This document shows, piece after piece, positions 1,273 to 38,147 of a stretch of DNA of 43,698 bases. The position numbers and the translations under genes were made by a program. The notes below the pieces were generated by a model that saw only the letters and a list, made by a program, of their open reading frames with translations, searched no databases and had not been told where the DNA came from. Source of the stretch: Schmidtea nova (Eukaryota). Every line of letters begins with the position of its first letter. Position 1 is the stretch's first letter. The stretch is taken from the NCBI GenBank assembly GCA_044892505.1, contig CM097882.1:87172001-87215698 (forward strand), given 5' to 3'.

Positions 1273-2685
1273 CTACTCTAACCATCCTTTCGTTGACTTT
1301 GTGTTCATCACTGTTGTACTTGTTTTCTTTTCGATCTCCAACTCTACGTATAGGTTGTCCTCGTACAACATTTCCCACATTTTTTGGTGTGGTATGAATT
1401 TTGGTTCTCCCGTTGCTAATGAACATTCTGTGGTTGGTCTTTTGTAAGCCTCGTGCTTCCCATCGACTTTGAATATTCTCACAATCGTTTCTCTCGAGTT
1501 TTTCACTCTCATTATCGCCTTTGTCTCTAGTGGCCATTCCAATATGTCGTCGTAACCACCTTTACACAACGCAAAGAATAGTGACACATGCGTTTCCTTT
1601 CCTGATCCATCTCCATTTGGATAAATTCTCATCCGAACTTTGTATCCATTTTTCCACAGATAGAATGGTGGACTTGTTACCGACACTTGACTTCCTGCTT
1701 TTGCTGCTGCGAACTTTTCGTTGAAGTTCTTGATTTTCCATACATATGGTGCAACAGGTAAACTCTCGATATCCTCTGCATCTCGCACCCATATTTGATG
1801 TCGTACATTTACCTCCTTTACTAGCGTCTCTATGACTTTGATTTTCTCCATCATTTTTTCTCTGGTGAGCTCGAATTGCTCTCTCGTTTCCAGTAATAAC
1901 TCCGTCATTATCTTCTGAGATTCAATTTCTTTTCCCATTTTCTGTATGGTTTGTTCCATTCCGTTCAAATTTGCTGTTAACATCTCGGCGTGTTGTACCG
2001 TTTCCGTTTCCAAATGCTCTTTCATCTCTTTGCTCGTTTTCTTTACTACACATCCTTGTTTACTCCATACGCACTTTCTTGGTCTTGATTCGCATTGTTC
2101 CCAATGTTCTCTCAACATCACTTCTTCTCCGGTTCCGCAATTACTTGGACAAATTCCTCTGAATTTTCCACACACTTTCTCTTCTGCTACGTTGAGATGT
2201 TCTGTTTCGATTACTTCTCTCGTCTCTCTTTGTTCGCAGTATTGACACTCTATTATCTCTGCTTTGCACTCGTCCTTGTGATTTTTCGACTGCTTGATGG
2301 TTATCGTCTGTTGGCACTTTTCACATATCGCTTTCTTGTTTTCGCATTTCTCCAGATGTTGTCTTAACTCGATTATTTGTCCTTTCCATTCACATGGTTG
2401 GTTTATACACTCTGTTTTTATCTTCCAGATCTCCTTTTGTATTGCTTTGTCGGGTTTTGTCTCGTTGATCAGTAGTTTATCGTCACACTCTGGGCACTTT
2501 CTTGTCTCACTTTCACTGATTATTTGCAATATACACTTGGTGCACATCCTGCATCCACATTCCGTTTGCCTGGGTTTTAACAGTAGATTTTTACACTTTA
2601 CACACGTCACATTTACTCCCCATTGTCGATTTTCTCTTCTTAGAATCTCGATCGTTTGGTAATCTGCTTCGCTTTCTGCTCTCAT
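1273..2685 (-). CDS. TRAF: TNF receptor-associated factor (TRAF) homolog, 470 aa, intronless: RING, TRAF zinc fingers, coiled coil, MATH/TRAF-C
   Basis: RING CVKC..KPRQTECGCRMCTKC..CPEC; zinc fingers CINQPCEWKG..HLEKC and CVWSKQGC..HLE; MATH VWKIKNF..SPPFYLWKNGYKVRMRIYPNGDGSGKETHVSLFFALCKGGYDDILEWP. Confidence 0.95.
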   Translation of the reverse strand: MRAESEADYQTIEILRRENRQWGVNVTCVKCKNLLLKPRQTECGCRMCTKCILQIISESETRKCPECDDKLLINETKPDKAIQKEIWKIKTECINQPCEWKGQIIELRQHLEKCENKKAICEKCQQTITIKQSKNHKDECKAEIIECQYCEQRETREVIETEHLNVAEEKVCGKFRGICPSNCGTGEEVMLREHWEQCESRPRKCVWSKQGCVVKKTSKEMKEHLETETVQHAEMLTANLNGMEQTIQKMGKEIESQKIMTELLLETREQFELTREKMMEKIKVIETLVKEVNVRHQIWVRDAEDIESLPVAPYVWKIKNFNEKFAAAKAGSQVSVTSPPFYLWKNGYKVRMRIYPNGDGSGKETHVSLFFALCKGGYDDILEWPLETKAIMRVKNSRETIVRIFKVDGKHEAYKRPTTECSLATGEPKFIPHQKMWEMLYEDNLYVELEIEKKTSTTVMNTKSTKGWLE

Positions 2686-2775: not shown

Positions 2776-3126
2776 TTATACATCCTCAGTTGAATCTGGC
2801 TCTGGATACACGTCTATCTCATTTACAATCCAGCTCGTCCAACTATCTGGTATCTCTTCCTCTTCATGTCTCGTTAATCGGTCAATTTCCTCTGCTTGCC
2901 AATTGTTTACTTCATTTAATGTTCGATTCTCGTTCTGTAATTCGTTTATCTGTATTTGTTGGATCTCGATTTTGTTCATTGCTTCGAAATTACAGTTATA
3001 ACTCTCGGTTAATAATTGCGTTTTGGCCGTCAACTGGCTCTGTAATTCGTTTATTGTTCTGGCTAGCAGGTCACATTGCACTTTCCATCTTGTCATCATT
3101 GACATCTCTGTGGTTTCTTGATTCAT
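2776..3126 (-). CDS. Small coiled-coil accessory protein (116 aa) with an acidic Trp-containing tail
   Basis: ATG ORF with heptads (LARTINELQSQLTAK; IQINELQNENRTL) and the element's codon bias; tail SWTSWIVNEIDVYPEPDSTEDV. Confidence 0.7.
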   Translation of the reverse strand: MNQETTEMSMMTRWKVQCDLLARTINELQSQLTAKTQLLTESYNCNFEAMNKIEIQQIQINELQNENRTLNEVNNWQAEEIDRLTRHEEEEIPDSWTSWIVNEIDVYPEPDSTEDV

Positions 3127-3249: not shown

Positions 3250-3708
3250 CTATTCAACTATCACTGGTTTTCCTTCGTACAGTTCCTCGTCCTCGATCTG
3301 TACCCATATTTCTTCGTGTTTTGACCGTCTTTTCAGCTCTTCTCGCACTGCTTTTGGTAGTTTAATGTTGTAATTCGTGACCTTTACGTCTGGCCATTTT
3401 ACTGCTATGGTCTTATTTCTCATGCCATATCTCCAACATACTATCATGATCGTTATCAGCGGTATACACGCTATGAATACTCCCATGCTGATTAATCCCA
3501 TTATTGTTTTCCCAATGCTCCTTCTTGGAGTCTCACTTTGGTTTATCATCACGCCATATTGACCTTTCCATTCTGCTTCCCATTGTTCATATTGTTGTTG
3601 TCTCCGTCTGACTTCTTCGATCACTTTCTCTGGTTCCCATTTTTCTTGTCGATTTGGTATTGTTTCTTCCTTCTCGTTTTGTTCTCTCTTCTGACTCAAT
3701 TCTCGGAA
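3250..3708 (-). CDS. TM helix plus cytoplasmic tail, in frame with pol/FN3 directly after the TAA at 3709-3711
   Basis: TAA TTC CGA GAA TTG.. is contiguous with the pol frame; hydrophobic IMGLISMGVFIACIPLITIMIVC followed by basic WRYGMRNK; tail contains EDEELYE. Confidence 0.75.
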   Translation of the reverse strand, partial: FRELSQKREQNEKEETIPNRQEKWEPEKVIEEVRRRQQQYEQWEAEWKGQYGVMINQSETPRRSIGKTIMGLISMGVFIACIPLITIMIVCWRYGMRNKTIAVKWPDVKVTNYNIKLPKAVREELKRRSKHEEIWVQIEDEELYEGKPVIVE

Positions 3709-6700
3709 TTATAACTTTCTGATTCTCCTCGTTATCGTCGTGTTCCTTGGCGTGTAATAGGTTTCGCACCTTTCTTGTGGATTTCCTTGTGTATCCACTT
3801 CTTCAATTGCACACACTTCGTATTCTGCGTTTGTTTTCAACTTCCTCATTTCTACCTCGATTATTTCTCTTTTGTCATTTGATGTCTTTTGACAATTTCG
3901 TGGAGACTTTCCCTCCTTGTTTGGTATTAATTTCCAACAGATTTCTAGGACCTTTTTATGGATCTTCCATATTATCAGAGTTGATGACTCTGGTTCGTTT
4001 TCTATTGTCGTCCTTTCCGTTGTTGCCGGTTGAATTCTCTGACTGTTGGTTGTCGTGGTCCTTCTTGACTTTCTTTTCCTCTGTCGACTTCTTCCCATTT
4101 CGATCGTTCTTGTTCCGTTAATTTGCTCTGGCGTCTTGTATAGTTTACATTCCAAGCTTCTTTGTATTATTTCTCTTATTCTTCGGATTACGCAAATTTC
4201 ATATGCTTGTCCGACTTCGAATCCATTTAGTTGAAACGGAATTCCTCGTTCTCTCGTTCTGCATTGCGGTAGTACGTGACTGGTCGCTACTCCGATGTAT
4301 TTTCTCCAACACATCCCAATTGTTCTTCGACCAATGTTTTTTATCTCCACGGTTACTACTTCATTCTTAATCGTTTCTTGGTCTTGTTTCCTTCTTTTTG
4401 GGAACTCAATTATCTCCTTTGCTTGGAACACTTTACACTCGCTTGTTCCTGGTCTGTTTCCGTTTGCTGCTTTTTCCATGAGACATAGTTCACATGTTTT
4501 CTCTGTTTCTATTTCAGTTATCTCTATTTCTTCATTTGTCTCTGCTTCCCGACTTTCTCTTGTCTCGCTGATTCCAATTACTTCATTGTTTCGTCCCCAA
4601 CATCTTCCATTCGTTGTTCGTTGATCTTGGATGTTTACTAACGTCATCACGCTGATATCTATGTCCTCCATGATTCTCTTAATGAGGATTAATATTAATG
4701 CTACACATATCAATTCTGGTTGGAATGTTAATTTTCCCGCTGGATTTTTGGTTATTCTTTCTTTCTCTGTTCGGTTTCTGATTCCTTCTTCTGCTTCGGT
4801 TTGATTCTTCCCTTTCTCTGATTCCACTTCTGATCTTCTCGTTGTCTCTTCGCTTCTTTTTCCAATCCATTTCTGTATTTTCAGCGCTTCTGTTGCTTTA
4901 TATAATTGACATGCAGTTACTTGAGGTGCTTTTGGTTCTCCTCTCTGCTTTATTGCGCATATTATGTATGACTTTTCTTTCTCTAATCCTTTGATTTGGA
5001 TGACGTCTCGCTTCAAGTCTGACAATATACACTTCAGCGTATCGTTTTTCCTCAGGTTTTCCTTCCAGCATATTCTTTCGTATACTTCGTTTCCTCTGAT
5101 TATTTCCAGCGTGACGTATTGTTTCTTGGCTTCTCCTTGTCCGATGATTGTTATCAATATCGCGATACACAACATTTCTGGTCTCAAAAGTAGACTTCCT
5201 GTTCGTTTTCCATAGTTCGCATGTTCGTCTTTTGTTCCACTGTTTTCTCGTTCTTCTGCTTCTCCTTTCTTGTCGTTTCTCGTTGGCTTCGGTTCTTCTT
5301 GTCTTTCTTTTTCATTATCCTCCGTTCTTTTGTTGTCATTGTCTTCGTTGTTCTCTTCGTTGTTGCTTTTGTCGTCGAAATCTCTGTAACCACCCCCTGG
5401 TCCTTTGAAAATGTCGTCCTCGACATTGATTTCTTCAATCAATCTTTCATACGCTTGAACCGCGAGTGTGCTAGACTCGAATTCACGTATCTCCATATCC
5501 TTGGATGGTTCTATGTTTTCTAGTCTATTTTGCTTGATTGTTTCTTTGGCCTTTGCCCACTCATTCACATATTTTCTGAACAAGTCTTTCCATCTTCCCG
5601 TTCGTTCCTGTTCCTTTGGGTTGTTAGTAAATTTCAAATCTCTTCTCTTCAAGAATTCTTCAACTATCTCTGGCTTTTTGTGTCTTAGCAACGCGCTTCT
5701 GATACACCAATTCTGATTTTGTTCCATATGGTCATTGATCTTGAATGCCGGTTCCTTGGTGATCGGATTCACCCATGTTAGTAATGCTCTTGTTTTTTCT
5801 ACGTCGTGTATCATTACTGTCAGACTGAAATTCTTTACGTTATTTGCCAGGTATTCGATATCATCTTGTTTCTTGATGGACTTTATGAACTTGATCATCT
5901 CGAAGTTGTTCCACTGTATTGCGATATCTATGATGGAATTATTCTTTCCATTTTTCCCTTCGATTTTTGCTCCTGCTTCGTATAATTCACTTAGCACTTT
6001 AAAGTTCGTCTTCTTTCTTGCTGCGATTATCATGATTGTATCTCCGTTATCATCAACCATATTCATATCTGCTTCGCACTTGACCATCGCTTTCGTTATT
6101 TCCAGCACTTCGTTTTCTTTCTTTCGACGTAATGCCCAGTGTATCGGCAATCTCCCATCCTTTGATAATAGGAATGCCACTGGCATTTGATTCTTGATCG
6201 TTTCTATGTCACTCTCGTTATAATCCCCTTGTGCATATCTGTGCACTCTCTCTGTAATTGCTCCTAGTATTCCCAACGAGCTTTTATTCTCCTTGAATTT
6301 CGATAATTTTTCCTGCGCTTTTGCTACGATTGCGTCTAATCTCTCTTGATAATCGGCTTTTGCATTGAACAACACTGCCTTGCTTCTTATTCGTGTTTGC
6401 ATCTGTTTCATCCGTTGGTCTTGATACACTGCTTGTCTGAAGAATTGTCCATACTTCAATGCTTCCACCAGCTCTTTATATCTCTTGCTTATTTCTTTGT
6501 GCTGCTTTTGGATGTCATAGAAATGTTCGAAGCTCATATCCGGATTCCATTGTTTATCACACCATTTCTTGATTAATCCGAATAGTTCCTTCTTTCGGTC
6601 ATCCAACTTGTATTCTCTTGGGTTTTCGCTAACCCGTAGCGTATCTCTCGCTATCAACACTGCAAGTGTTTTTGGATCGTATGTTACCTCTAGTAGATGT

Positions 6701-9700
6701 TTCAGTAACGCATTTTCTCCCCTTGTGAATACTTCATTACAATTTACGACCCACGAATCTCCTTCTGGTCGTTTCCATTTTAGCAATATTCTCCAGGTTT
6801 TACTGTTCTTTACCCCGATTGCTTGTTTCATGATCGATCCTCTAGTTAGTTCATCGATTTCCCACGTGGCGTTTTCTGTGATATACTTAAGTAATCGGTG
6901 ATTTGCTCTATCGATTGCATGATTCAAGAATGTTCGTCCTTCTTTATCTTTTGCCATCCAACTCGATCTGGTGTTTCCGAATAGCTCGACTATTTCCTCA
7001 TCTCTTCCATGAATCGTCATCATCATAAGTGGAGTGATTCCTTCCCAATTCACTTTGTCAATTTCTCCTCCACCTTCGAGTATCATCTCTACGATCTCTT
7101 TCACTTTTTCGTTCCCACTGTGCTTGACTGCATTGTGCAACGCTGTGTTACCGTCTTTGTCTTGTAGATTCAATGTTTGAGGGATTTCCTCTAGCAGCGT
7201 TCTTGTTATTGGATGTGCTGTTCTATCCTTCGCATACTCCATTACATTCTTTCGAACTTCTGTCAATATATTGAAATCGAACCACCATTTCCATTCTGGT
7301 ATAATTTCTCTGGTCCTCTTTGCCAGTTCTTTGATGTCTATTGCTTCTCTTCGGTTGTCTTCTAGACTTGTTTGCGGCTTTTGTTGTACTCGCAACATAC
7401 TGATTCTCGCCGTCTGTGATCTTGTCATTACCCGTTTTTCTGGTAATCGAGTTGCTGTCTTTGGTACTTTTCTGCATCGACATGTATTCACGTATATTGG
7501 TCTTACCAATGGATTGTTCACCAATCGTACTCGCACATTATTTTCATTTACTGTTGTTATTTCATATGGCCCCTTGCCTGGTCGTTGGAGTTTCTTGACC
7601 GTACCGGGTATTATCTCTGGTGTCTCAATTATCACCCAATCTCCAACTTTTAAATCATGTGCTTTCACATTCTTTTTCTGGTCATGTAGATCCTTGTAAC
7701 TTTCTTGATAGAACTTGATGTTTAGTTCCGCCGTTTTCCAGATTTCCTGCATTCTTTCTTTGAACTTTGTAACGTAATCGTCAAAATCCATGTACTGCGA
7801 TAATGGTGGTTGATATTCTAAATCGATCGGTAAGTTGCAATCTCTTCCGTACATCAGTTGAAATGGACTTAGCTTTGTTGTCGCATGTATTGACATTCTG
7901 TATGCCATTAAACACAAGTTGATATACTCGTCCCAGTCAGTCTGATGTTTGCTGACGTAATTTGACAACATGCGTATCAATGTTCCATTGAATCTTTCTG
8001 TTTGTCCGTTCGTTTGTGGATGGTATGGGGATGTTCGTAATTTCGCAATTCGGAAGTAATTCGTGACTTCGTCTAATATTTCACTCATAAAATTTGTTCC
8101 TTGATCCGTTAGGATTTTCTTTGGTGTTCCGTATCTGCAGCATATTTCTTCCACCAATATTCTTGCGACTGTTTTCGCCTTTTGATCCGGTATTGCGAAT
8201 GCTTCTGGGAACTTTGTTAGATAGTCCGTGACTACTAATATGTACTGATTTCCTTTTAAACTTTCCGGCAATGGTCCAACTACATCCATTGCTATCGTCG
8301 CCATAGGTTCTGCAGGTATTGGCATTGGTTTTAGTGGTGTTTTCCACTTCGTTCCGACGTTCTTTCTTGTCGCACAGGTTAAGCAGTTCTTTATCCATTC
8401 CTTCACATCATCTTCCATGGTTGGCCAAAAGTACTTTTGTCTCAGTCTCCCGATTGTCTTTTTCGCTGACATATGTCCGCCTAATTTTCCGTCATGATAT
8501 TGAGTCATGATTTCCTTTCGTCTATTCGCAGGTAAGCACATTAATCTTCGTTCTCCATCTTGTATCAATAACCATCCTTTTTCCATCACATATCTATGTT
8601 GATATTTCTGCATATGTTCGCGCAACGTTTGGTTCTTGCCGAATATTTCTATTTCCCTTTCTTTCAAATACTTGCTGATCAATCCCAACTCCTCATCTTC
8701 GAGTTGATCTTTCCTTAGTTCGCTGAAATCCAAATCTTCCGCTATTAATGCACATATTTTTAGAGCATTCAGGTTCACCAATTCTGGGAATGTAAATCTT
8801 GACATGCAATCCGCGTTTGCATTTGCTTTTCCTGCTTTAAACTTTATGAATGGCGAGTATTCCTGCAACTGCATCGCCCAACGCATCAATCTACTTGATG
8901 ATTCTTTGTGTTGACCTAACCATACCAATGGTTGATGATCCGTCGTGATATATATTTCATGACCCCACAATAGGTATTTGAAATGCTTGATTGCCAATAT
9001 TATCGCATAGGCTTCTCTTTCCGTGACTGAGTAATTCCTTTCATGTTTCCTGAATGTTCGACTGTAATATCCGATCACTCTCTCTTTGCCTTCTTCATCG
9101 AATTGGCCTAGTACTGCTCCTGCTGCGTATCCACTTGCATCTGTTGCCAACAGAAATGGCTTCTTGAAATCTGGATGGACCAATATTGGTGCTGTAATCA
9201 GCTTGTCTCGCAATGTCTCGAATGCTGCTTGTTGCTCTTCTCCCCATACAAACGACATATCTTGTCTTACCAATTCTTGCATTGGCTTTGATATTCCTGC
9301 ATAGTCCTTGATAAACTTTCGATAATATCCACACAATCCCAAAAATTTTTGTATTTGAGTCACTGTCTTTGGTGGTGGACATTCTTTGACTTTTTCGATA
9401 TTCCTTGGATCTGGTTCTTTTCCTTTTGCTGATACAATGTGACCTAAAAATGTCACTTTCTCTTTTGCCCAATCGCACTTTGACGGCTTTAATTTCAGTT
9501 TCCATTGCCTCAATTTCACGAACACATTTCTGATATCTTGTAAGTGGTCTTCAAATGTTGCGGAGTAGATCAATAGATCGTCGATGTACACCATGCATTG
9601 TTTTATGCCATGTGTTACGAAATTCATGCATCTCTGGAATGATGCTGGCGCGTTTGTTAACCCAAACGGCATTTTCTTGAATTGGTACAGATCTCGTCCG

Positions 9701-10875
9701 ATTGTAAATGCTGTCTTTTCTTTATCCTCGTCCTTCATTTTGATCTGCCAATATCCGCTTTTTAAATCCAGTGACGTGAAATAAGCTGCTCCTTGTAAAG
9801 TCAACAACATTTCGTTTATGTCTGGCAGTGGGTACGTGTCTCTTTTCGTAACTGCGTTCAACCGTCTGTAATCGATACAGAATCTCTGAGTTCCATCCTT
9901 CTTTTTCACCATCACCACTGGGAATTGCCAGGGTGAGCAACTAGGTTCGATGACCTCCGCATCTAACATCTTTTGTACCTCTTCTTCTGCCACTGCTTTT
10001 TGAGCTTCTGCCAATTTATATGGTCTTAATGCGATTGGCGTCTCGTCCGTCAATGGTATCGTATGTAATGTTACATCACATGTTCCCAAATCCAAATCTG
10101 ATGCTGCGAATATATCTTGATACTCCATCAACAGTTTCTGTAACTGTTCTTTTTGTTGTTCGTCTAACAACACACTGTCGATTTTCCATGGTAATTCGTC
10201 TTTGCTTTTCTCATTCTTGCCTGGTATTTCGATTTCGGACATGGGTGTCAATTTGCCCAATCTCTCATTCTCGTAAATTATCTTGTCCTCTTCGTCAAAA
10301 TTCACCAGATTAATTGGTATCTCACCTTCTTGGTTTATCGTAACCAATTCTCTTGCCATTGGTAATTCCTTCTTCGCTTCGAACTTCTTACTTGGTTCGA
10401 ATATCATATCTCCCTTTATTGTTGAATCGATCTTGACATAACACATCATTTCATGTCTCGCTGGCACTACTATTTGTTCCGCACTTGCCACTTTAACTTT
10501 CATTCTGCAGATTTTTCCTGTCCTATCTTTTAGCTTCATTGCTCCTAGATCAATTACGATTTCCTTGAACAGGTCTGGCATTAGGTCAGTTCCAATAATA
10601 CATGGTACACTCAGCGATGGTATTACAGCGATGTACGTGTTGATTTCTGCACCTCGATGCTTAATTTTTACAAACCATCTTCCGGCTACTTCTACTGTCT
10701 CCTGACTGCACGCGATTACATGTACATTCGTCTTCTCGATTTCCCCTTGGTTTTTCTCTGGTATATAATTAATGTCGATCGCCGAAATATTCGCGCCTGT
10801 ATCGATCTTAGCTTCAATTTCTCTTCCGTTTATTTCTACGGTTGTTGTTAAGATTGGTCCCATGTTTGTGGACAT
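3709..10875 (-). CDS. pol: Pol polyprotein, 2388 aa: aspartic protease, dUTPase-like linker, RT, RNase H, integrase (HHCC, DDE, GPY/F), then ankyrin and FN3-like extensions
   Basis: AKIDTGANIS (PR); LDLKSGYWQI, MPFGLTNAP, YIDDLLI (RT); LATDAS, EREAYAII, TDHQPL, NANADCMSR (RH); YHDGKLGGH..CLTC, AMDVVGP, TDQG, NGQTERFN, GKGPYEI (IN). Confidence 0.98.
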   Translation of the reverse strand: MSTNMGPILTTTVEINGREIEAKIDTGANISAIDINYIPEKNQGEIEKTNVHVIACSQETVEVAGRWFVKIKHRGAEINTYIAVIPSLSVPCIIGTDLMPDLFKEIVIDLGAMKLKDRTGKICRMKVKVASAEQIVVPARHEMMCYVKIDSTIKGDMIFEPSKKFEAKKELPMARELVTINQEGEIPINLVNFDEEDKIIYENERLGKLTPMSEIEIPGKNEKSKDELPWKIDSVLLDEQQKEQLQKLLMEYQDIFAASDLDLGTCDVTLHTIPLTDETPIALRPYKLAEAQKAVAEEEVQKMLDAEVIEPSCSPWQFPVVMVKKKDGTQRFCIDYRRLNAVTKRDTYPLPDINEMLLTLQGAAYFTSLDLKSGYWQIKMKDEDKEKTAFTIGRDLYQFKKMPFGLTNAPASFQRCMNFVTHGIKQCMVYIDDLLIYSATFEDHLQDIRNVFVKLRQWKLKLKPSKCDWAKEKVTFLGHIVSAKGKEPDPRNIEKVKECPPPKTVTQIQKFLGLCGYYRKFIKDYAGISKPMQELVRQDMSFVWGEEQQAAFETLRDKLITAPILVHPDFKKPFLLATDASGYAAGAVLGQFDEEGKERVIGYYSRTFRKHERNYSVTEREAYAIILAIKHFKYLLWGHEIYITTDHQPLVWLGQHKESSSRLMRWAMQLQEYSPFIKFKAGKANANADCMSRFTFPELVNLNALKICALIAEDLDFSELRKDQLEDEELGLISKYLKEREIEIFGKNQTLREHMQKYQHRYVMEKGWLLIQDGERRLMCLPANRRKEIMTQYHDGKLGGHMSAKKTIGRLRQKYFWPTMEDDVKEWIKNCLTCATRKNVGTKWKTPLKPMPIPAEPMATIAMDVVGPLPESLKGNQYILVVTDYLTKFPEAFAIPDQKAKTVARILVEEICCRYGTPKKILTDQGTNFMSEILDEVTNYFRIAKLRTSPYHPQTNGQTERFNGTLIRMLSNYVSKHQTDWDEYINLCLMAYRMSIHATTKLSPFQLMYGRDCNLPIDLEYQPPLSQYMDFDDYVTKFKERMQEIWKTAELNIKFYQESYKDLHDQKKNVKAHDLKVGDWVIIETPEIIPGTVKKLQRPGKGPYEITTVNENNVRVRLVNNPLVRPIYVNTCRCRKVPKTATRLPEKRVMTRSQTARISMLRVQQKPQTSLEDNRREAIDIKELAKRTREIIPEWKWWFDFNILTEVRKNVMEYAKDRTAHPITRTLLEEIPQTLNLQDKDGNTALHNAVKHSGNEKVKEIVEMILEGGGEIDKVNWEGITPLMMMTIHGRDEEIVELFGNTRSSWMAKDKEGRTFLNHAIDRANHRLLKYITENATWEIDELTRGSIMKQAIGVKNSKTWRILLKWKRPEGDSWVVNCNEVFTRGENALLKHLLEVTYDPKTLAVLIARDTLRVSENPREYKLDDRKKELFGLIKKWCDKQWNPDMSFEHFYDIQKQHKEISKRYKELVEALKYGQFFRQAVYQDQRMKQMQTRIRSKAVLFNAKADYQERLDAIVAKAQEKLSKFKENKSSLGILGAITERVHRYAQGDYNESDIETIKNQMPVAFLLSKDGRLPIHWALRRKKENEVLEITKAMVKCEADMNMVDDNGDTIMIIAARKKTNFKVLSELYEAGAKIEGKNGKNNSIIDIAIQWNNFEMIKFIKSIKKQDDIEYLANNVKNFSLTVMIHDVEKTRALLTWVNPITKEPAFKINDHMEQNQNWCIRSALLRHKKPEIVEEFLKRRDLKFTNNPKEQERTGRWKDLFRKYVNEWAKAKETIKQNRLENIEPSKDMEIREFESSTLAVQAYERLIEEINVEDDIFKGPGGGYRDFDDKSNNEENNEDNDNKRTEDNEKERQEEPKPTRNDKKGEAEERENSGTKDEHANYGKRTGSLLLRPEMLCIAILITIIGQGEAKKQYVTLEIIRGNEVYERICWKENLRKNDTLKCILSDLKRDVIQIKGLEKEKSYIICAIKQRGEPKAPQVTACQLYKATEALKIQKWIGKRSEETTRRSEVESEKGKNQTEAEEGIRNRTEKERITKNPAGKLTFQPELICVALILILIKRIMEDIDISVMTLVNIQDQRTTNGRCWGRNNEVIGISETRESREAETNEEIEITEIETEKTCELCLMEKAANGNRPGTSECKVFQAKEIIEFPKRRKQDQETIKNEVVTVEIKNIGRRTIGMCWRKYIGVATSHVLPQCRTRERGIPFQLNGFEVGQAYEICVIRRIREIIQRSLECKLYKTPEQINGTRTIEMGRSRQRKRKSRRTTTTNSQRIQPATTERTTIENEPESSTLIIWKIHKKVLEICWKLIPNKEGKSPRNCQKTSNDKREIIEVEMRKLKTNAEYEVCAIEEVDTQGNPQERCETYYTPRNTTITRRIRKL
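3738..5075 (-). other. Four Cys-containing FN3-like repeats in the pol-frame C-terminus
   Basis: Repeating CW..(L/F)xxxxxY/CxxC..CxxY/FxT pattern: GLEKEKSYIICAI..CQLYKAT; EIETEKTCELCL..CKVFQAK; GFEVGQAYEICVI..CKLYKTP; KLKTNAEYEVCAI..CETYYTP. Signal-like segments precede repeats 1 and 2 (PEMLCIAILITIIGQGEA; PELICVALILILI). Confidence 0.65.
5870..7165 (-). other. Two ankyrin-repeat clusters (about 6890-7165 and 5870-6165) in the pol-frame C-terminus
   Basis: DKDGNTALHNAV, NWEGITPLMMM, DKEGRTFLNHAI; SKDGRLPIHWAL, DDNGDTIMIIAA, NGKNNSIIDIAI. Confidence 0.9.
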
Positions 10876-10914
10876 AACCGCTATCGTGTGCGTGTCTTCT
10901 AACGAGTCTACGCT

Positions 10915-13900
10915 TTAACCTCGTTTTACTTTGCATCCTTCTGGAATTATCGGGTATATACTTGTCATCGGCATCATCTGCATCATATTCGGCTTCGCTT
11001 TGTATATCGGTTCGTTATACATTGATTGGGGTGGAGCACTGTATCTCCAATTCTCAACTGCACTCTTTTCGGTATACTGTGGAATCTGGTTTATATTCGC
11101 TTGTCCTCCTTGATCGTCATCGTCGTCATCATCATTGCTTGAGTCATCTTGTGTTCGATATCCCTTCACTCTTTCCCATAATCCTTTCCTTTCTTTCTTG
11201 AGTTGTCGTCTTGCTTGCTCGTCTTGCATTATCTTTTTGAATTTCCTTCCGACATCTTCATTTGTTCCTTTCATTTTAGCAAGTATCTTCAACAATCTTT
11301 TTATTCGATGTATGTTTTTTGAGTGTCCGTGCAACACCATTGTTTTCGCAAGGAATGGTAAAAACCCTACTACCATTTTCCAATTCACTTTCTTCTCTCT
11401 CTTGTAGATATCGAAGCACGCTAACATTTGCGTTATTATCACTCTGACAATTTGTATTATCAATATCACTCCCAGTATTCCAGCCATCATTTGTCCGAAT
11501 ATCAGGAATCTTCCCCACATTGCTTTCATCATATTTTCTGTGGCTTTCTTGAAATGTGCTGGTGACAATAACAGTTCATAATTCGGTCCTTCTCGATAAT
11601 CCGTTCCTCCCGTTATCGTTACGATATTTGACAGTAATGCTTCTCTTCTTGCCGGGAATAATATATTCTGTCTCGCCGCTTCCAAATCTTTTGGGCTATA
11701 TATTCCGTTGTTTGAGACATCTACGTCGCTGAACTGTCTATCCTTTGACAACTGCATCAGTTCAAATTCTCTTGGTGCTAATACTTCGGTTCTTCCTGGG
11801 AACATTACCCATTTGCCATCTGGTTTCTGATAAAGCGGTCCGTATGCGTTACTACAGTTGAATGGATTTGGTTCGAATCCTGGTGGATTGATGATTCTCG
11901 TCACCGGTTGAACGTATCGTACTTTTCCTTTGTAATCGATTTCTAGTTCGTTTGTACAAGTTCCTGGTTTCAACTGCGTTGTTGCTGCTAGCGATGCATG
12001 TGTCTTTTCGCAAATGTATACGTACATTGCTTCTCCGACCACTCTTCCGAAATGTCCTTCTCTCAGTGGTAATAACGGCATCGCGCTATCTGGATTCGTA
12101 ATCGCTACGGCCAACTTTGTCTTTAATATTTCTCGATTCAGTATACAATCGTTGTTTATCAGATCATAGTACACTTTTTGCAATGAGGCTTGTCCTCTAT
12201 GGAATAAGAAATCCATTTTATTATTCACATACAAGTGTAGCTTGATATCCATTGTGTCGATCTTGGGTTTCGCATTCGGCACTTCTTGCTTTGACACGTA
12301 TATTCCTGGATAGTTTGTTTCGTATACCGTTGTACTGCACTTAAGGGTTGCTTTCCCTTTTATGAATCTCATGCCCACATCCTGATTTGTGGTTATCAAC
12401 ACTGTTGGTGTGGTTCTCATTTCTATCCGTTTCTCTCTATGATCCGGTTTCAATTGTCTTTTATTCTCTAAAGCTTCTTTGAGATGCTTTGCTCTAGCTT
12501 TGTCATCATCGTCCTCTTCTTGGAATGTTTTTCCTTGAATTTCGTCGAACTTTGCTCCTTGTAGCAGTTGTAATTGACATTCGTTCACCTTTGGTTTATA
12601 CACCAATGTTGACATTCCCGTTTGACACATGCTCCTGTCAATTTTACACATGGATAACGTTTTCATTTCTCCCGTTGTTGGTTCGAAGAATGCTTCGTAG
12701 CTTTTCAGTTCGACTATATACGTATCCATCACCACCAAGTTGGTTGCAAGTACTCCGAATATCGGGTAGGTTTCTCCTTGACAATACCCTTCTCCTCCCG
12801 TAATCCGTCCTGCTACATAGTACGTCTGCTGTAACATCATTCCTGGTTTTCCTTTTATCTTGATTTTATCCCTTGTTGTTACTTCTCCATGTTTGAACAA
12901 TGCTTCGCAGTCTTCTCCTTGCAACACGATTGGTTCTCTTTCCGTTCCTGGCATGACAATTGCTGAATAATGCCCTCTCCCACAATAGAATGCGAATCTC
13001 GTCTTCTGCACCTTGCATTCATTCACCATTGTCTTTATTAGTTCTGCTTCTTGATACACGTGGTACCATTGTTCCTTTTTAATCTCTCTCAACTCTACTG
13101 GAGATGCATCTTTGCATTGCTCCGTACCTCTCAATGAATACTTTTCTCCCAATTTCATTTGATCACAATCAAATACTTCGAACGTTGTTACACCTTCTGT
13201 GCTTAACAACCATACTAACATCATCATGATTATCGAGTTTAAATTCAACGTCGATCTTCCATTTCCTTGCATCGTTTGTCTATTCTCCATTTCTCTCAAT
13301 ACTCCTTCGAGTTTCTTTCTCATCACGTTAGACCCTTCTTTTGTCTGGTTCTCTTTTATGAACTTTTCCCATCCTCCTTTCCTGAGGATATATGGTTCAA
13401 TTTCTTTCTCGATAATCATCGCCGTATTTTTAATATGTCTTCCCATCGGACTTGACTTCGGACTTCCTCGGCTTAGCGTTAACAAATTGTATATCGTATA
13501 CGAGATTGCTACCAGATATTTGCTGTCCATTTCTGCTCCGTTGAGTAGCCTTTTTATTAACCTCGTGGTTCCTTGCCAATCTAGATGATTCGATTTTGTT
13601 TTTGCTTTGATTAATTCTGGCATAATCGGTGCTATCGCATTGTGTAGCATCTTTGCCTTTGTACTAGGTTCGTTTATCCGCCACAAATTCTTTAATTCCG
13701 GGTCGATTATCGCTAGTACATCCATTATCGTTTTGGTGAGCCATTCTTCTCCTTGACAAACTTGATTCTCCTCTTTGCCTCTGATCTCTGCGATTTTATC
13801 CAATTTCTTCAAGCAAATCTCCCATTGCTCTTGTCTCCTTTCTTCCCTTGTCTTTGGAATTGCTGTTGTTGGGTCTATCTTTGGTCTTCCTCTTGGTCGT

Positions 13901-14001
13901 TTTTCCATTCCAGTTCCGGTTTCTACAAATCTCGTTGCTCTTCCCGTTTCTTCCGTAACATCTCTTCCTTCGTTTGCTCGTTGTTCTAACCATCTTTTCA
14001 T
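10915..14001 (-). CDS. env: AT-hook plus Bcl-2-like domain fused to a chuvirus-G-like class III envelope glycoprotein (1028 aa)
   Basis: Env motifs FEVFDC..C, FYCG, DCILNREILKTKLAVA, GHFGRVVGEAMYVYIC, CTNELEI..QPVTRII, CSNAYGPLY..W, GIYSPKDL..ILFP, TM WGRFLIFGQMMAGILGVILIIQIV. N-terminal KRPRGRPK; BH2-like YILRKGGWEKF. Confidence 0.85.
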   Translation of the reverse strand: MKRWLEQRANEGRDVTEETGRATRFVETGTGMEKRPRGRPKIDPTTAIPKTREERRQEQWEICLKKLDKIAEIRGKEENQVCQGEEWLTKTIMDVLAIIDPELKNLWRINEPSTKAKMLHNAIAPIMPELIKAKTKSNHLDWQGTTRLIKRLLNGAEMDSKYLVAISYTIYNLLTLSRGSPKSSPMGRHIKNTAMIIEKEIEPYILRKGGWEKFIKENQTKEGSNVMRKKLEGVLREMENRQTMQGNGRSTLNLNSIIMMMLVWLLSTEGVTTFEVFDCDQMKLGEKYSLRGTEQCKDASPVELREIKKEQWYHVYQEAELIKTMVNECKVQKTRFAFYCGRGHYSAIVMPGTEREPIVLQGEDCEALFKHGEVTTRDKIKIKGKPGMMLQQTYYVAGRITGGEGYCQGETYPIFGVLATNLVVMDTYIVELKSYEAFFEPTTGEMKTLSMCKIDRSMCQTGMSTLVYKPKVNECQLQLLQGAKFDEIQGKTFQEEDDDDKARAKHLKEALENKRQLKPDHREKRIEMRTTPTVLITTNQDVGMRFIKGKATLKCSTTVYETNYPGIYVSKQEVPNAKPKIDTMDIKLHLYVNNKMDFLFHRGQASLQKVYYDLINNDCILNREILKTKLAVAITNPDSAMPLLPLREGHFGRVVGEAMYVYICEKTHASLAATTQLKPGTCTNELEIDYKGKVRYVQPVTRIINPPGFEPNPFNCSNAYGPLYQKPDGKWVMFPGRTEVLAPREFELMQLSKDRQFSDVDVSNNGIYSPKDLEAARQNILFPARREALLSNIVTITGGTDYREGPNYELLLSPAHFKKATENMMKAMWGRFLIFGQMMAGILGVILIIQIVRVIITQMLACFDIYKREKKVNWKMVVGFLPFLAKTMVLHGHSKNIHRIKRLLKILAKMKGTNEDVGRKFKKIMQDEQARRQLKKERKGLWERVKGYRTQDDSSNDDDDDDDQGGQANINQIPQYTEKSAVENWRYSAPPQSMYNEPIYKAKPNMMQMMPMTSIYPIIPEGCKVKRG
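13360..13800 (-). other. Bcl-2-like domain
   Basis: EPYILRKGGWEKF matches the BH2 pattern; MDSKYLVAISYTIYNL lies about 50 aa upstream and aligns to the BH1/alpha5 pattern (NWGRIVALFYF) with NWGR degenerate; helical composition; C-terminal hydrophobic segment. Confidence 0.65.
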
Positions 14002-14016
14002 TTCTTGAGTAAACTA

Positions 14017-14235
14017 TGGTTGTTCTTGCTCGTCTTCGGAATCGTTTACCATTTCTATGACTACCTCCTGTTCCACTCCTTGATCGTCGATTTCTGCTGG
14101 TGACGTTACTGGCATCTCTATTATTCTGTCGAAAATATTCGCCGTTGGTTTTTGAGTTAACTTCGTTAATTCTTCTATCGCTTCGTCACTGTCTGTTAAT
14201 ATTTCGTCTACGTCATACGCTTCTGGCGGTGTTCT
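14017..14235 (-). other. 73-codon open acidic linker, in frame between ORF2 and the Bcl-2/env ORF, bounded by two TAG codons
   Basis: Manual translation RTPPEAYDVDEILTDSDE...DSEDEQEQP; TAG at 14236-14238 and 14014-14016, then FTQE and ATG 14001, all in one frame. Confidence 0.75.
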
Positions 14236-16474
14236 CTATCTCGTTTTGATTGGTGTTGTCCTTGCTTGTCCCGAACTTGTTCCTGGGATCATTGCTGACT
14301 TCATCGGACTTGGTGTACTCATGCTTCCTTTCGGTTTCTTTTCCTCTTTAAACTTCAGTGGTTGACCCACTATCTGTGCCACTGTTAGCGTATTCATTAG
14401 ATCCAATTGCACTGGTGTCAGCCAGATTTCCAACTTGTTATCCAACGATCGTCCTTGATGTTGCAGGTGGAATGGTAGTTCGTACATCAGTTTCTCTTTA
14501 ACACTTTTCACTTTTTCTGTTAGCATCACCCAAAACTCTTCTTTTCTCTGATTTGGATACATTATCCTCAAATGTATTTTCTGTGGCGTTTCCTCCGCAA
14601 ATTCTTTGTTTCTCCACTTTTTTATTACATTGTCTAGTTGCTCTGGACACCACTCATTAACTCTCTTGTATTCTGCTATCGCTTTAGCTGCTTTTCTCAA
14701 GTTCGTCATGTCTTCTCCATTTGCGATTATAAAATCTGCTAAGCCTTTTATTGTTTGTCTTTTTCCCCGAGTATTTCCTCTCAACAGTTCTATTAATTCA
14801 TCCGTTTTCTGTTTCTCCAATTCTGCCCATATTACTGCAGTTTCTGGTCCGTCTAAGTCCGTTGGTAATAACCTCCTTGTTACCATACATATCCGTTTCG
14901 TATTCGATTCATATCTGTCTTCTCCTTCTGGATCTTCTTCATACACGCCTCTTTTCACTTTCCAACATTTCTCTTTGTTATCCCATTGCTTCTCTACTGG
15001 CGTCAATCGTCGTCTGTTAAGATCCAATTCTCCCAATATTGTCTCCCATTCTGGCTTCATCTGCCAGTTCCGATAGATTTCTACTATCTGCCTCAACTTG
15101 CGCATAACGTCCTCTTGTCGTTTCTTTCTCCTTTCTTCATCTCTTGGTGTTGCTCTTGGCACATCATCCATTCTGATGACGTGTATTGTCTGGGAATTGT
15201 CCCATATGCCGATTTTATACGCTCGTCTTTCGTCACGTTCATTCAGTAGATGTTCTTTGTATTTTATCGCAATGTCATCCTCGAATTCATCTTCCCGTTC
15301 TCGTTGTAATATCGTCTCATTGATGACATCTACTATTTCTCCCACTTTACTATCTGGTATTACCTCAATTTGTCTTGTCTCTTCGTTCGGTAATCTCACA
15401 GTAATCATCAGATCTGATACCTCTCCTCGTCTAAACATTTCTTTTCCCATCTTTGCGATTAGCTTGTCCGTTTTGAAATTTGAATGTCTCGTTTGACTTG
15501 TATCTCGTATGTTCTCGATACACTGTTTCAAATTCTCATACTCGCTTTTTGTCAATTCCTTTCGATGTTTCTTGATTTGTTGGATGATCTGTTCTATCAT
15601 CGTATTCAAATTCTCTGCCAAGATTCGTTCCTTTGCCTCTATCAACTGAGGTTTTATTCTCATCTCATAACACGTATTCGCTTCTTTGACGATTCCTTGT
15701 AAGTTCTCTTCCTTCTTGGTGTTGCATATTGATAACGTTGTTATTTCTCCTGGCCATATGCCTGTGTCTATCATATGCGTTCCTTTTTTCACTAATCCGT
15801 TTTCCGAATATATGAACTTGTCTTTGTACGAGCTTCCCAATCTGTCCTCAACCCATCTGTAGATTCCATCTGTCATTGGGTTCTTTATCCAGATTCTCGG
15901 TGAACACTCGTTTATCCATATCTGTATTATGTATTCGTTGAGTGGTTCTTTCAATAACTTCTCTATGAACTCTTGTATTACTCTCACTTCTCTTTCTTGT
16001 AACCACTCTTTATACTTCATCTGCCATATTGCTCGTATGAACTTTCGGTATCGTTTCTTGTCGATAAACTCCTCGTTATGGATTACTTCCAACACGTTAT
16101 CCATCAGCTTCTGAATTTCGTCTTCCTTTACCGACATCGTTTCTATCGTCTCGACTACTTCCATCTTTTTATCCTCGTTTTCCGGTTCCTTTAGCATGTC
16201 TCCTGCCAGACTGCTAACTTCGCTGTCGTCTTCTTCATCTGACAACTCTTGTCTTGGGTGTCTCAGCATCCCAATATGCGCGGTTGGTCTCACTTCGTTT
16301 TTGCTAACTTCCTGCGTTAGTTCATTCTCGTTTCCCGTTATTTCAGCTTTTCCCATTCTTTTCTCCAACTCATCTATTTCTTCAAACCGTCTTCGTCTTA
16401 TTTTCCCTTTAAATATCCGACTGATCCGAGTTTGATGTTTCACTGGTGGTGGGAGTTTCTCCGGTTCCACCTCT
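14236..16474 (-). CDS. ORF2 (gag extension) with two ubiquitin-like domains, about 15170-15410 and 14380-14580
   Basis: MITVRLPNEETRQIEVIPDSKVGEIVDVI and IHLRIMYPNQRKEEFWVMLTEKVKSVKEKL..LQHQGRSLDN resemble the ubiquitin beta-grasp pattern ([35 protein letters not shown]). Joins the gag frame if the 14-nt duplication at 16461-16488 is removed. Confidence 0.65.
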
Positions 16475-18729
16475 CCGGTTCCACCTCTCTGATGATCATC
16501 ACGTTCATTTTCGTCTCCGTTACTCCCATATCTTCCCATATATCAGTCATCTTCAACTTTACTTCCGGTAAATCCTCTGTTTGTAGGAATGCTTCTCTGG
16601 GTAGTTTCGTCACTCCCGGCATCATCTCATTTACTTTATTGAACAATCTTCCCACTTCTTCTTTTACATTGTATTTGAATCGCCACACGTGATCATTCAG
16701 CATGATCACCAACATTCCTCTTTGTTTGATTCTCACTTCTTCTTCTTGATTCACTTCTTTTTCTGTTTCTTTTTCTATTTCTGTTTCTTTTTCTACTTCT
16801 TCAACTTTTTGATTCTGCTCTGCGGTTTCTACTTCCTGATTCATTTCTTCTTGTTTCTGCTCTTCGTTTCTTTTCTCTTTAACTTCTAACTCGTCTGACT
16901 CATCTTGCTGCTTCTCTTCCATCATTGCTCGCATCATGTTGATCCTTGGGTTTCCCTTTTTTAACAGTTGTAATCGTTGTTGCCTGACTTGTTCTTCTTC
17001 TCGTCGTACTCTGGCCCATTCTTGATTATGTTTCTGTTGGCTTTCTCTATTTTCTCTTTCAGCCTCAGCTTCTATTAACTGGATCATGTTTATCTTTGGT
17101 TGAGCAGCTTGCTGGCTTCCCTTTGCCATGCTTTCGATTATCTCGTGTAATCTGGATACCTCCTGTCTCAACTTGGCCTCTTTCATACTGGCTTCGTTTG
17201 CACTGCTATTTGGGTTGTTCCGTTGTTGACCCTGATTCCCATAACTTGATCGATTTCCGTAATTCTGTCTATTTCCACTGTTTGACCAACTTCTCTGTTG
17301 ATTACACTCTCTTGACATGTGTCCCGTTTTCCCACATGTGTAACACATTTTCCCGTAACATCGATTCTCTGAGTGACCTTTTTGTCCACACAGTTTACAG
17401 GCTACATTCTGAAAACACTCTTGTTGCCAATGTCCGTTTTTCCCACACGTCTGACATTGCCTATTCTGCCTGTCATTGTAACTATTTCCTCCACTCGTGT
17501 TCACTGTGATATATCCATTATTTTTCCTCGCTGGCGGTTCTTTGAACAATCTCTGCGAATGGGGAATACTTTGATTCATGTTTCTTTTTCCTTGTTCTTC
17601 ATCTTCTGTCGTTTTTCCCATTACCGCCGTAATTCTCATGTCGTTCATTGCCATATGCAATTCGAATAGGTTGGCTGCTTCTAACGCTTCATCTACTGTT
17701 TTACATCCTTTGCATCCCACTTGTGCTCTGATGTCAGGTCTCCTGAGACCTCGTACGAATAACGCTGTCATCAATTCTTCGTCTACTGGGCTTCCTCTAT
17801 TGAATGCCAGTTTCGCCAACTTTCTTAATTCGCTTGCGTATACCGCATTTGACTCATTTCTCCTCTGTTTTCTTGCTGAGAACTCATCGAACGCTTCTTT
17901 CAACACTTTATTTATCCCAAACGTCTGTTGGAAGAACTCCTTGATTGCTTCCCACGTTCTGGGTGGATTACTTCCCGATCTCTTTTCAATATACAGATCC
18001 AATGCGCTATCTTTCAAGTATAGCGGGATTCGATTTGCCAACGTTTCTGCACTTTATCCGCATATATCCACGAATATGCCAAATTCCTTTAGAAACGTGT
18101 CCAATCTACTGGCGTCTCCATCGAATGGTTCGCCCTTGAATTTTTCTCTCAGATCCTCTCTGTGTTCACTCATCCCGATTCCACTGTCTTGGAATACTGT
18201 ACTAGTTTTCTTTGCTTCTATTTCACCACTTGTTTCTGGATTCAACTCTTCTTCTTCAATACTCTCTGTTTCGTTATCTCTTGATTCGCTTCTTGTTCTG
18301 TTTTCACTAACTAGTTCACAGTCTATCGTTTCTACTTCGTTTCGTACTTCTGGATCCTCTGGGGTTTCTTCTTGGTTCTCTTTATTACTCGAATTATCGC
18401 TGATCTCTGCTGGTTTGTTCTTCAGTTGCGCTGCTTTATTTCTTGGCCTTGTCTTCTTCGCTGTTTTTCTTTCTTCTTCTGTTAGGATTGGTATTATACC
18501 TGTCCTTGTTTTGCGTTCCGCAATCTTGTCTATTACTCAACTTCTTATATTCTCAACTGATTTTCTACTTCGCTTTTGCTTTGCTTCTTCTTCGATTTGT
18601 TTCCTTTGACTGCTCTGACTGCTAGATTGCCTGGAATTGCTTGATTGATTTGTTTCCTTAAAACAAATAATCACTTACACGATACGTCCCCGTTATCGTG
18701 TTTCTCGTCCCTCTCACGGGTGTAGTCAT
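16440..18729 (-). pseudogene. gag: gag (capsid plus three CCHC knuckles), disrupted in this copy by TGA 18537-18539, TAA 18054-18056 and a 14-nt duplication
   Basis: GEPFDGDASRLDTFLKEF..ICG*SAE..IPLYLKDSALDLY..TWEAIKEFFQQTF..RKQRRNES..YASELRKLA; CQTCGKNGHWQQEC, CKLCGQKGHSENRC, CYTCGKTGHMSREC. The frame is continuous across both stops up to 18656. Confidence 0.9.
18657..18678 (-). promoter_or_regulatory. Consensus splice donor GTAAGT (18678) and in-frame acceptor (18657): putative 22-nt intron or major splice donor
   Basis: Minus strand ATG(18729)-MTTPVRGTRNTITGTYR|GTAAGTGATTATTTGTTTTAAG|GAA ACA (ETNQ..) joins in phase 0 with gag. Confidence 0.5.
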
Positions 18730-19050
18730 AATTCATGAATCTCCCCATTTTTCCCATTTCCCTTGATTTTAAGTCTATTTAAATTATCTATGCAGTCGTA
18801 TCAATTATCTATTCTTTATCAAATACACCAATTACTTTTCCCCAGTTTCCCAATTACTTTGTCGCTCGGCGCTCTTATTATCCCCTTTACTTTTCTCAGG
18901 CTTCTCTGGCTCTGAGTTCAAATTTCCCCTTATCTGTCGACTACTCTGTTTCTCGACTATTCGCTTTATTTCCTATTCACACTACGTTTACTACTTCATT
19001 TCAATTCTCGTCTCTACTCACCTTTAATTCAACTGACATCTCTCGTTGGC

Positions 19051-19427
19051 CTGCTGGGCTTTCCAGTCAGCGCTTTTAATCTCACCTTTTACTGTTATTT
19101 CGTTACTCTCGACCACGACTGTCATTTCATTAGCCTGCTGGGTTTTCCAGTCAGCGCTTTTATTATCCTCCATTTACCTCTTTACTGTCGACTTTTACCT
19201 GCTCTTTACTCCGATGATCATCACTTTTGACCTGCTGGGTCTTCCAGTCAGCGTCCTCAATTTCACCACTTTATTATTACTCACTTTTGTTCTCTCGATC
19301 TTTCCTGATCGTTATCATTGACCTGCTGGGTTTTCCAGCTAGCGTCTTTACCACTTTACTTGTCTTAACAAACCGGTTTTATTTTACTTTCGTCGAATCT
19401 CATGGTCTGCTGGGTTTTCCAGTCAGC
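19051..19427. repeat. Five dispersed 21-nt motifs CTGCTGGGYYTTCCAGTCAGC (hairpin-forming, kB-like core) in the leader
   Basis: Copies start at 19051, 19135, 19232, 19323 and 19407 (spacing 84-97 nt). Confidence 0.9.
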
Positions 19428-19766
19428 ACCCTTCACTTACTCGCTTTATTTTATTACTCTTCACTGTATGCATACTTTGAAGTCATTAGGCTACATAATC
19501 AGCTTTACTCGCATTTATCTATACCCAGGTGCGCACCTTTAACTCTTTCGTTATTAATTCGGTTTCAACCCTTATTCCTCATTACTCGCTATTCATTTTC
19601 CCTATTCGTCATTTATCCTCATTATCACTTCTCTACCCTCCTTTATTCCTCTCTATTATTGCTCGTTTATTTCTACTATCCGGATAGTTTTATACTTTGT
19701 TTAGTCCTCATCTGCCTCACTTCGTCGTCTTTCTCGTGGGCTTTTACTCAATATTTTATTTCGGAC

Positions 19767-20290
19767 GAGAACTATGCTCACAGCTGAGAACTATGCTCAC
19801 TAACGAGAACTATGCTCACTAACGAGAATTATGCTCGCTGGCAAAACATGGTTGTTACGAGGGTTTTGCTTACTGATGGAAACTCTGTTTGCTCCGGGGA
19901 CTAGTTCCCCGATGAGAACTATGCTCACTGATGGTGACTACAGGAATTATGCTTCCTGATGAGAACTACGCTCACTACGATGACTATGTTTATTGATGAG
20001 AACTACGCTCACTGATGAGGACTATGTTCGCTGTTAGAACTTACGTTTATTGATGAGAACTCTGCTCACTACGAGATTTATGTTTACGGACGAGAACTAT
20101 GCTCACTATGGTGTTGTGTTTTATGACGAGACCTACGCTCACTATGATGTTATGTTTATGACGAGATCTATGCTCACTGTGATGTGAGGTTTTATGACGA
20201 GACCTATGCTCACTAGGATGTTATTTTTATGACGAGACCTATGCTCACTTTGATGTTAGGTTTTATATCGAGACCTATGCTCACGAACGA
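19767..20290. repeat. Tandem array of about 15 GAGAACTATGCTCACT-type motifs (19-nt, then about 36-nt period)
   Basis: Read directly; variants GAGACCTA(T/C)GCTCACT dominate the right half. Confidence 0.92.
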
Positions 20291-25119: not shown

Positions 25120-25159
25120 ATGCTGCTCGATTTGGCTGGCCCAACAAGAATATATAAAA

Positions 25160-37605: not shown

Positions 37606-37669
<64 letters not shown>

Positions 37670-38116: not shown

Positions 38117-38147
<31 letters not shown>

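Follow-up and report, generated by a model that had tools for sequence, protein, structure and literature searches.

A stretch of 43,698 nucleotides from Schmidtea nova (contig CM097882.1, positions 87,172,001 to 87,215,698; hereafter the window) was analysed, and its positions 3250-18536, read on the minus strand, are a broken copy of a 29.1-kb Ty3/gypsy (Metaviridae) long terminal repeat (LTR) retrotransposon. The element displays two LTRs with TG...CA ends, a target-site duplication, a tRNA primer-binding site and a pol region in the order protease (PR), reverse transcriptase (RT), RNase H (RH) and integrase (IN), all of which are hallmarks of Ty3/gypsy elements. Its total length is 29,102 bp, with the 4-bp target duplication AGAA on both flanks. 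The 3ʹ LTR lies 798-3,955 bases to the left of the window start and differs from its 5ʹ partner at 17 of 3,159 aligned places, with 0 gaps. A 24-mer from the leader matches exactly at 135 places in the genome, indicating at least 135 copies.

The open reading frames (ORFs) ending at 3250, 3709, 10915, 14014 and 14236 had been proposed to share one minus-strand frame, and this is the case: from 16543 to 3250 the frame is interrupted only by the single stops at 3709, 10915, 14014 and 14236. Gag occupies a different frame (16440-18536) that contains one internal stop at 18054. For comparison, 17.2 kb was taken from 30 of the 39 other listed genome places, chosen as the best by the score of a 701-nt probe; these sibling copies are about 95% identical to the window copy and the set is hence biased to close copies. 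Changes found in one copy alone are called private, and constraint is given as the ratio of nonsynonymous to synonymous polymorphism (pN/pS). The features of the long frame and its flanks are as follows, where TM denotes a transmembrane segment.

21989-25146, minus strand: 5ʹ LTR, 3,158 bp, with TG...CA ends.
21965-21982, minus strand: primer-binding site, complementary to the 3ʹ end of host tRNA-Pro(TGG).
18537-18539, minus strand: upstream boundary stop of the long frame, conserved in 29/29 siblings and not a break.
18174-18536, minus strand: 121 open codons ahead of the first Met, coding-like (pN/pS 0.37, 0 stop alleles).
16489-18173, minus strand: Gag, with capsid domain, three CCHC knuckles and a coiled coil (PF03732, E 3e-6; PF00098); private stop at 18054.
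16461-16488, minus strand: private, perfect 14-nt tandem duplication that frameshifts the window copy where the Gag and downstream frames overlap.
14353-15417, minus strand: two putative, weakly matching ubiquitin-like (UBL) domains (15178-15417 and 14353-14592).
13339-13728, minus strand: Bcl-2-like domain, with private stops 14236 and 14014 upstream.
13159-13251, minus strand: predicted internal signal sequence of Env, hydrophobic in 30/30 siblings.
11404-13158, minus strand: Env ectodomain (Monjiviricetes/gB-type fusion glycoprotein; PF24664, E 5e-73; pN/pS 0.02) and TM (11404-11508).
8017-10845, minus strand: Pol, with protease, RT, RNase H and integrase in gypsy order (Pfam; pN/pS 0.01-0.05); private stop 10915 just upstream.
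5881-7182, minus strand: ankyrin repeats (PF12796, E 7e-19).
3418-5217, minus strand: C-terminal membrane module, with a signal-like segment (5119-5217) and a final TM (3418-3516); private stop at 3709.
4879-5127, 4411-4665, 4117-4362 and 3739-3978, minus strand: four FN3-like repeats in the C-terminal module.
4660-4752, minus strand: extra hydrophobic segment between FN3-like repeats 1 and 2.
3250-3252, minus strand: terminal stop of the predicted polyprotein, conserved in 29/29 siblings.

Each interruption of the window copy is filled by coding sequence in its relatives. Sense codons stand at 3709 and at 18054 in 29/29 alignable siblings and at 10915, 14014 and 14236 in 30/30 each, and the extra 14-nt copy is missing from 29/29, which bears out the proposal that Gag joins the frame once one copy of the repeat is removed. 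A stop-free frame from 18536 to 3250 is present in 8/30 siblings, and these unbroken frames measure 5,076-5,090 codons from stop to stop or 4,955-4,969 codons when counted from the first Met. In a protein search, 26 of 140 family rows with at least 80% identity were stop-free within their match, at 5,076-5,114 codons (hand count). The sibling alignment therefore supports the reading of the frame as a single polyprotein.

The same comparison bears on whether the stops might be programmed, with readthrough, frameshift or splicing at them fixing the Gag:Env:Pol ratios. Isolated stops close to the edges of domains, such as 10915 just before the protease, do resemble retroviral junctions. However, no alignable sibling has any of the five stops or the duplication, and none of the 30 stop alleles in the set of copies (0-6 per copy) is shared by two copies, which refutes programming at these sites and makes this explanation extremely improbable. 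Because sibling codons are open where the window copy is broken and all stop alleles are private, the breaks are ordinary decay, and the window copy is mutationally dead. The sequence-only reading had also suggested that all six stops could derive from TGG by G-to-A change. This form of hypermutation was rejected because G>A changes account for 23/100 private changes in the window copy and 322/1,447 in the siblings, and because TGG is the commonest codon at just one of the five private-stop columns; the sixth stop, at 18537, is conserved.

Along the unbroken frame the order is Gag, two UBL-like domains, a Bcl-2-like domain, signal, Env, TM, PR, RT, RH, IN, ankyrins, FN3-fold repeats and TM. 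Misassembly or a nested insertion might in principle have placed env before pol, and no point in favour of such an artefact was recorded. This order is common to 30 collinear sibling copies, to two more families in the genome and to outside relatives, as Env precedes RT in 17/17 database relatives that carry env, RT and IN in one protein. Contigs from four public sequencing runs, moreover, span all 30 bins of the element. An artefact of this kind is thereby refuted, its probability being close to nil, and the placement of env between gag and pol stands.

The domain assignments made from the sequence alone have mostly held, with evidence of different kinds. Pfam identifies Env, PR, RT, RH, IN, the ankyrins and the CCHC knuckles. 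The Bcl-2 assignment is carried by a seven-row profile (the window, a second family and five element loci positive for PF00452) that matches Bcl-xL with E 8e-7, although five of the seven rows were chosen as PF00452 matches; the window domain is about 25% identical to those five loci. The UBL-like profile matches ubiquitin and ISG15 weakly (E 0.03-0.2), and in one relative (P0161) a Pfam ubiquitin domain is positioned between Gag and Env.

For the FN3-like repeats the evidence is a predicted fold. All four share an invariant C-W pair plus two further Cys residues, and no sequence match was obtained for them in Pfam or PDB. A model of repeat 4, with a predicted local distance difference test (pLDDT) of 73.5, best matches FN3 domains (Z 7.9, root-mean-square deviation 2.7, 75 residues). 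This Z is middling and may reflect a common beta-sandwich; Foldseek rows were nearly all FN3, yet every E exceeded 0.07, and Atlas matches scored under 0.9. Three methods nonetheless point to FN3. Single-sequence AlphaFold prediction of the 489-aa C-terminal part gave no usable model (pLDDT 35).

Purifying selection acts on all domains of the long frame. Shared-allele pN/pS is 0.02 for capsid, 0.06 for the Bcl-2-like domain, 0.02 for the Env ectodomain, 0.01 for PR, 0.02 for RT-RH and 0.01 for IN, with 0.11-0.32 elsewhere in the frame, including 0.12 for the ankyrins and 0.20-0.22 for the C-terminal module. A conserved region of 120 aa between PR and RT, without a Pfam match and at the position of the dUTPase-like region of Burro, has a ratio of 0.05. 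Control regions in the leader give 0.75-0.93, which are rough values, since position maps are noisy within the 19100-19400 repeats.

Taken together, these observations make it highly probable that the window holds a decayed copy of a Burro-type element whose unbroken sisters encode Gag, Env and Pol in one frame, likely as a single membrane-threaded polyprotein. The Gag-UBL-UBL-Bcl-2-like portion would be made in the cytosol, after which the internal signal would direct the Env ectodomain into the endoplasmic reticulum (ER). Once signal peptidase has cut, the Env signal would likely be left on the Gag/Bcl-2-like piece and serve as its tail anchor. With the chain brought back to the cytosol by the Env TM, the protease encoded by the element could release PR, RT-RH, IN and the ankyrin part there, and a second signal would send the FN3-like repeats into the lumen, where the last TM would hold them. 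One chain would supply Gag, Env and Pol in equal quantity, with no need for frameshift, readthrough or splicing of env.

Six hydrophobic stretches are maintained in all 28-30 alignable siblings, namely the Env signal, the Env TM, a weaker stretch within the Env tail, the post-ankyrin signal-like segment, the segment between FN3-like repeats 1 and 2, and the final TM, which is followed by basic residues. The membrane topology implied by the sequence-only reading accommodates five of these, whereas the segment at 4660-4752 had not been counted.

Other minus-strand features lie in the leader and downstream of the long frame:

20980-21438, minus strand: upstream accessory ORF whose C-terminus carries a RING finger (PF13920, E 7e-9); an acceptor-like CAG stands immediately before its ATG.
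19051-20304, minus strand: leader tandem-repeat arrays with units of 19, 36-38, 71 and about 84-97 nt, differing in length between copies.
18640-18900, minus strand: leader block, almost invariant, that contains four ATGs, a donor-like GTAAGT (18678) and a T-rich acceptor-like site (ending at 18657).
2776-3126, minus strand: conserved downstream accessory ORF of 117 codons (pN/pS 0.07), with an acceptor-like site in 28/29 siblings.
1273-2685, minus strand: TRAF-like accessory ORF with RING, zf-TRAF and MATH domains (PF22486, E 1e-26).
13-1183, minus strand: two coiled-coil accessory ORFs (500-1183 and 13-528).

In the TRAF-like ORF (1273-2685) an acceptor-like TTGTTGTAG abuts the ATG in 28/29 siblings, and one more accessory ORF, which bears a TM, is located immediately to the left of the window start. 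These accessory ORFs (RING, TRAF and coiled coils) would likely be expressed from spliced RNAs. The donor-like and acceptor-like sites of the leader block are kept in 29/29 and 28/29 siblings, respectively. An intron of 22 nt between them had been invoked to extend the coding frame to 5,148 codons. The arithmetic is right (15444 nt) and the ends are invariant, but the intron was rejected because it leads into 45 codons (18672-18540) that are noncoding, with pN/pS 1.38 and five stop alleles, and then into the conserved stop at 18537. Between the leader block and the first Met, the 483 nt at 18174-18656 contain no ATG in any frame in 28/29 siblings, where about 7 would be expected and where equal-length stretches on either side hold 8-12. 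Six sibling copies are 84-85 nt longer within 18174-18536. The absence of ATGs fits either a spliced leader or leaky scanning combined with a non-AUG start codon further upstream.

Conserved splice-like sites also raise the possibility that the long frame is genomic only, and that Gag, Env or FN3-TM are produced separately, each from spliced RNAs, in the manner of Cer1 and CERV. The invariant sites in the leader and before the accessory ORFs are in keeping with this, as is the precedent of Cer1, in which CERV is produced from exons within the polyprotein frame (PMC10309623); in addition, equal output of Gag and Pol would be unusual. However, donor hexamers are depleted within the frame: the window copy has 0 there, whereas 300 synonymous shuffles average 4.1 and never reach 0. 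A genome search for copies lacking an intron at the 18678 donor found none, the sole deviant among about 136 places being a point change, and large deletions in siblings lack GT-AG ends at conserved sites. Contigs of the four public runs gave no canonical splice joint among the 15 joints listed, a result that is uninformative on expression. We regard exclusively spliced products as unlikely, and some splicing can coexist with the single-frame explanation.

Several observations weigh against a single threaded polyprotein and its decay in this copy. One-chain translation, cleavage sites and topology are predicted from sequence, and the start codon of the long frame is not fixed by it, as the 121 coding-like codons without an ATG precede the first Met. 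One or two donor hexamers occur inside the frame in 12/28 siblings. The hydrophobic segment at 4660-4752 makes the number of membrane crossings odd, such that lumenal placement of FN3-like repeats 2-4 is uncertain. The Bcl-2-like and UBL-like stretches of the window, when searched alone, score on no library. Finally, five private stops exceed the roughly 2.5 expected from LTR divergence (about 41 post-insertion changes), an excess that by this hand estimate is high but not extreme, and two of the five are two bases away from the commonest codon of their column.

A membrane module behind integrase is not confined to this family. At least two hydrophobic segments follow integrase in 13/15 env-bearing relatives whose integrase core is followed by 300 or more residues, compared with 1/23 env-less gypsy proteins (below 50% RT identity) and 3/8 closer proteins without a matched Env, although the relatives are kin to one another and these counts are not independent events. 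In one relative (P0177) an Ig domain follows the post-integrase signal. A BLASTP comparison of the window's C-terminal module with that of P0003 was not significant; the two have position and hydrophobic pattern in common, and sequence does not prove common ancestry. Outside relatives P0001-P0005, P0160 and P0171 carry two or three aspartyl-protease-like domains, often with one behind integrase. Another relative, P0011, is filed under a bacterial genome bin and is likely contamination.

Two further families in the genome share the gene order. The second family (loci L141-L142 and L145-L152) has one frame of 5,649 codons in which the FN3-TM module is doubled. The third and smaller family (L143-L144, G000:C1 near 411.01 Mb) has a frame of 3,073 codons in the order Gag, Bcl-2 (above the PF00452 cut-off), signal, Env, PR, RT, IN, signal and TM, and has no ankyrins; numerous frames of some 3,060-3,080 codons were seen in the genome protein search. 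The second family and the window are about 70% identical in DNA flanking env and 75-80% identical in RT, versus 90-92% across the stretch that begins at the Env signal and extends slightly beyond the TM (11300-13170). Correspondingly, the distance between families at fourfold sites is 0.21 in env compared with 0.51-0.65 in four other regions (31 by 9 copies). Silent-site constraint does not explain this similarity, because within-family fourfold-site distances are alike in all regions. A nearly unchanged Env ectodomain shared by families that are otherwise 70% identical points to module exchange. In a weakly resolved tree, eight of the nine envs from the second family cluster together on a short stem (83/100), and the second-family row L152 is a long misfit that was retained in both tree and means; the cluster of eight is consistent with one recent transfer, in either direction.

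Env is likely functional, because it is as constrained as RT and has apparently been exchanged as a unit between two families. The predicted second membrane protein at the end of the frame likely aids attachment of particles to cells. We tentatively suggest, as a minority possibility, that single-frame gag-env-pol elements carry a two-part entry machine like those of herpesviruses or paramyxoviruses. A gB-type fusogen before Pol would act with a post-integrase, separately signalled membrane protein of type I, assembled from adhesion domains taken from the host (FN3 here, Ig elsewhere), that chooses the target cell, and the fusogen ectodomain would be traded between families as a cassette.

Alternatively, Env and the FN3-TM module might no longer be entry proteins and might serve an intracellular role, such as anchoring assembly, cell-to-cell spread, or acting as decoy receptors that block cell death together with the TRAF, RING and Bcl-2-like parts. 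The element does bear TRAF, RING, Bcl-2-like and ankyrin parts, its FN3 region evolves faster (pN/pS 0.20), and Burro1 is said, second-hand, to protect stem cells via an IAP-like region (PMC13465017). In contrast, the pN/pS of 0.02 in the Env ectodomain and an exchange between families at the ectodomain borders speak against this, as does the presence of the post-integrase module in relatives and in the third family. A solely intracellular role is conceivable but doubtful.

Comparison of the copies shows that selection preserves the entire frame of some 5,000 aa, Env included, during transposition, whereas earlier descriptions inferred this from domain hits. A second membrane protein behind integrase across the clade would be a concrete candidate partner for the gB-type Env, because herpes gB needs partner glycoproteins and the entry mechanism of gB-bearing elements is described as open in the available part of PMC13524379. 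Env exchange further implies that the two families likely share particles or cells, and offers a natural contrast for asking what Env does.

Some additional features were recorded. The LTR interior has two ORFs, at 22371-22955 (194 codons) and 23165-23788 (207 codons), that are open in both LTRs and have no Pfam match. The tRNA-Pro(TGG) motif has 899 exact genome matches, and a tandem tRNA array at G000:C1:459.61-459.66 Mb (L093), with a 308-bp period, is mostly tRNA-Pro(TGG). Beyond the element, host exons at window positions 29280-31516, one with a GLTSCR1 domain (E 4e-12), flank a 24/25-nt satellite at 29872-30584. Two inverted-repeat elements resembling miniature inverted-repeat transposable elements lie at 32452-33486 and 37639-38147, the second within a TA run.

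The sequence-only reading implied that env before pol was new, but the single-frame gag-env-pol layout has already been published, and the element belongs to a described kind. Planarian Burro elements, reported in 2019, carry env in frame between gag and pol in ORFs of 4,873 and 5,140 aa (PMC6431247). According to the available part of that account, Burro1-4/GYPSM1 of Schmidtea mediterranea and a Burro-like element of Dugesia tigrina are similarly about 30 kb long, with LTRs and one ORF near 5,000 aa, and share Gag CCHC knuckles, UBL, BCL2-like, in-frame env, ankyrin, TRAF/MATH and RING parts and tandem repeats (PMC6431247). The present element likewise combines giant size, many copies and an ORF of ~4,900-5,100 aa that holds in-frame env, retrotrans_gag with CCHC, BCL2-like before env and ankyrins, alongside MATH/TRAF and RING. 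It differs in that TRAF is a separate downstream ORF, whereas it lies inside ORF1 in Burro1 and upstream in the D. tigrina element (PMC6431247). Moreover, the available part of that account makes no mention of FN3-like repeats accompanied by a second signal and a TM. Burro1 also has a BIR (IAP) domain, and no BIR family was found among Pfam matches of 17 window frames, short or decayed frames aside.

Elements with the order GAG-ENV-POL and an HSV/gB-type Env (HSV, herpes simplex virus) have been described in nematodes, bryozoans and flatworms, including six in S. mediterranea (PMC13524379). The window element agrees with these errantiviruses in gene order and Env class, its Env being flanked by a signal and a TM and placed upstream of pol, and this Env resembles by eye the supplement rows Smed_errantivirus_5 and _6 (PMC13524379). 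The words 'polyprotein', 'in-frame', 'Burro' and 'fibronectin' never occur in the available portion of that main text, which treats env recombination as infrequent and ancient, whereas the exchange between the two families here appears recent (PMC13524379). Neither a membrane module of the FN3/Ig kind behind integrase nor an exchange of env among Burro families was found described in the literature searched; outside that search lay Grohme 2018, Lee 2026, Jurka 2007 and Sacco 2022, which may mention the module. Cer1 of C. elegans likewise belongs to the gypsy elements and combines a single long frame with an accessory product made by splicing, but it lacks a fusogen between gag and pol, and its downstream ORF is an RNA-export protein (PMC10309623).

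By these comparisons the element would work like Burro; its likeness to Burro1-4 is judged by description, as no named Burro protein was among the matches. Alphavirus and flavivirus polyproteins place capsid, internal signal, glycoprotein, TM and cytosolic enzymes in a single ORF whose product is threaded through the ER. Although they belong to unrelated RNA viruses, they may serve as a working analogy for how one chain could supply Gag, Env and Pol.

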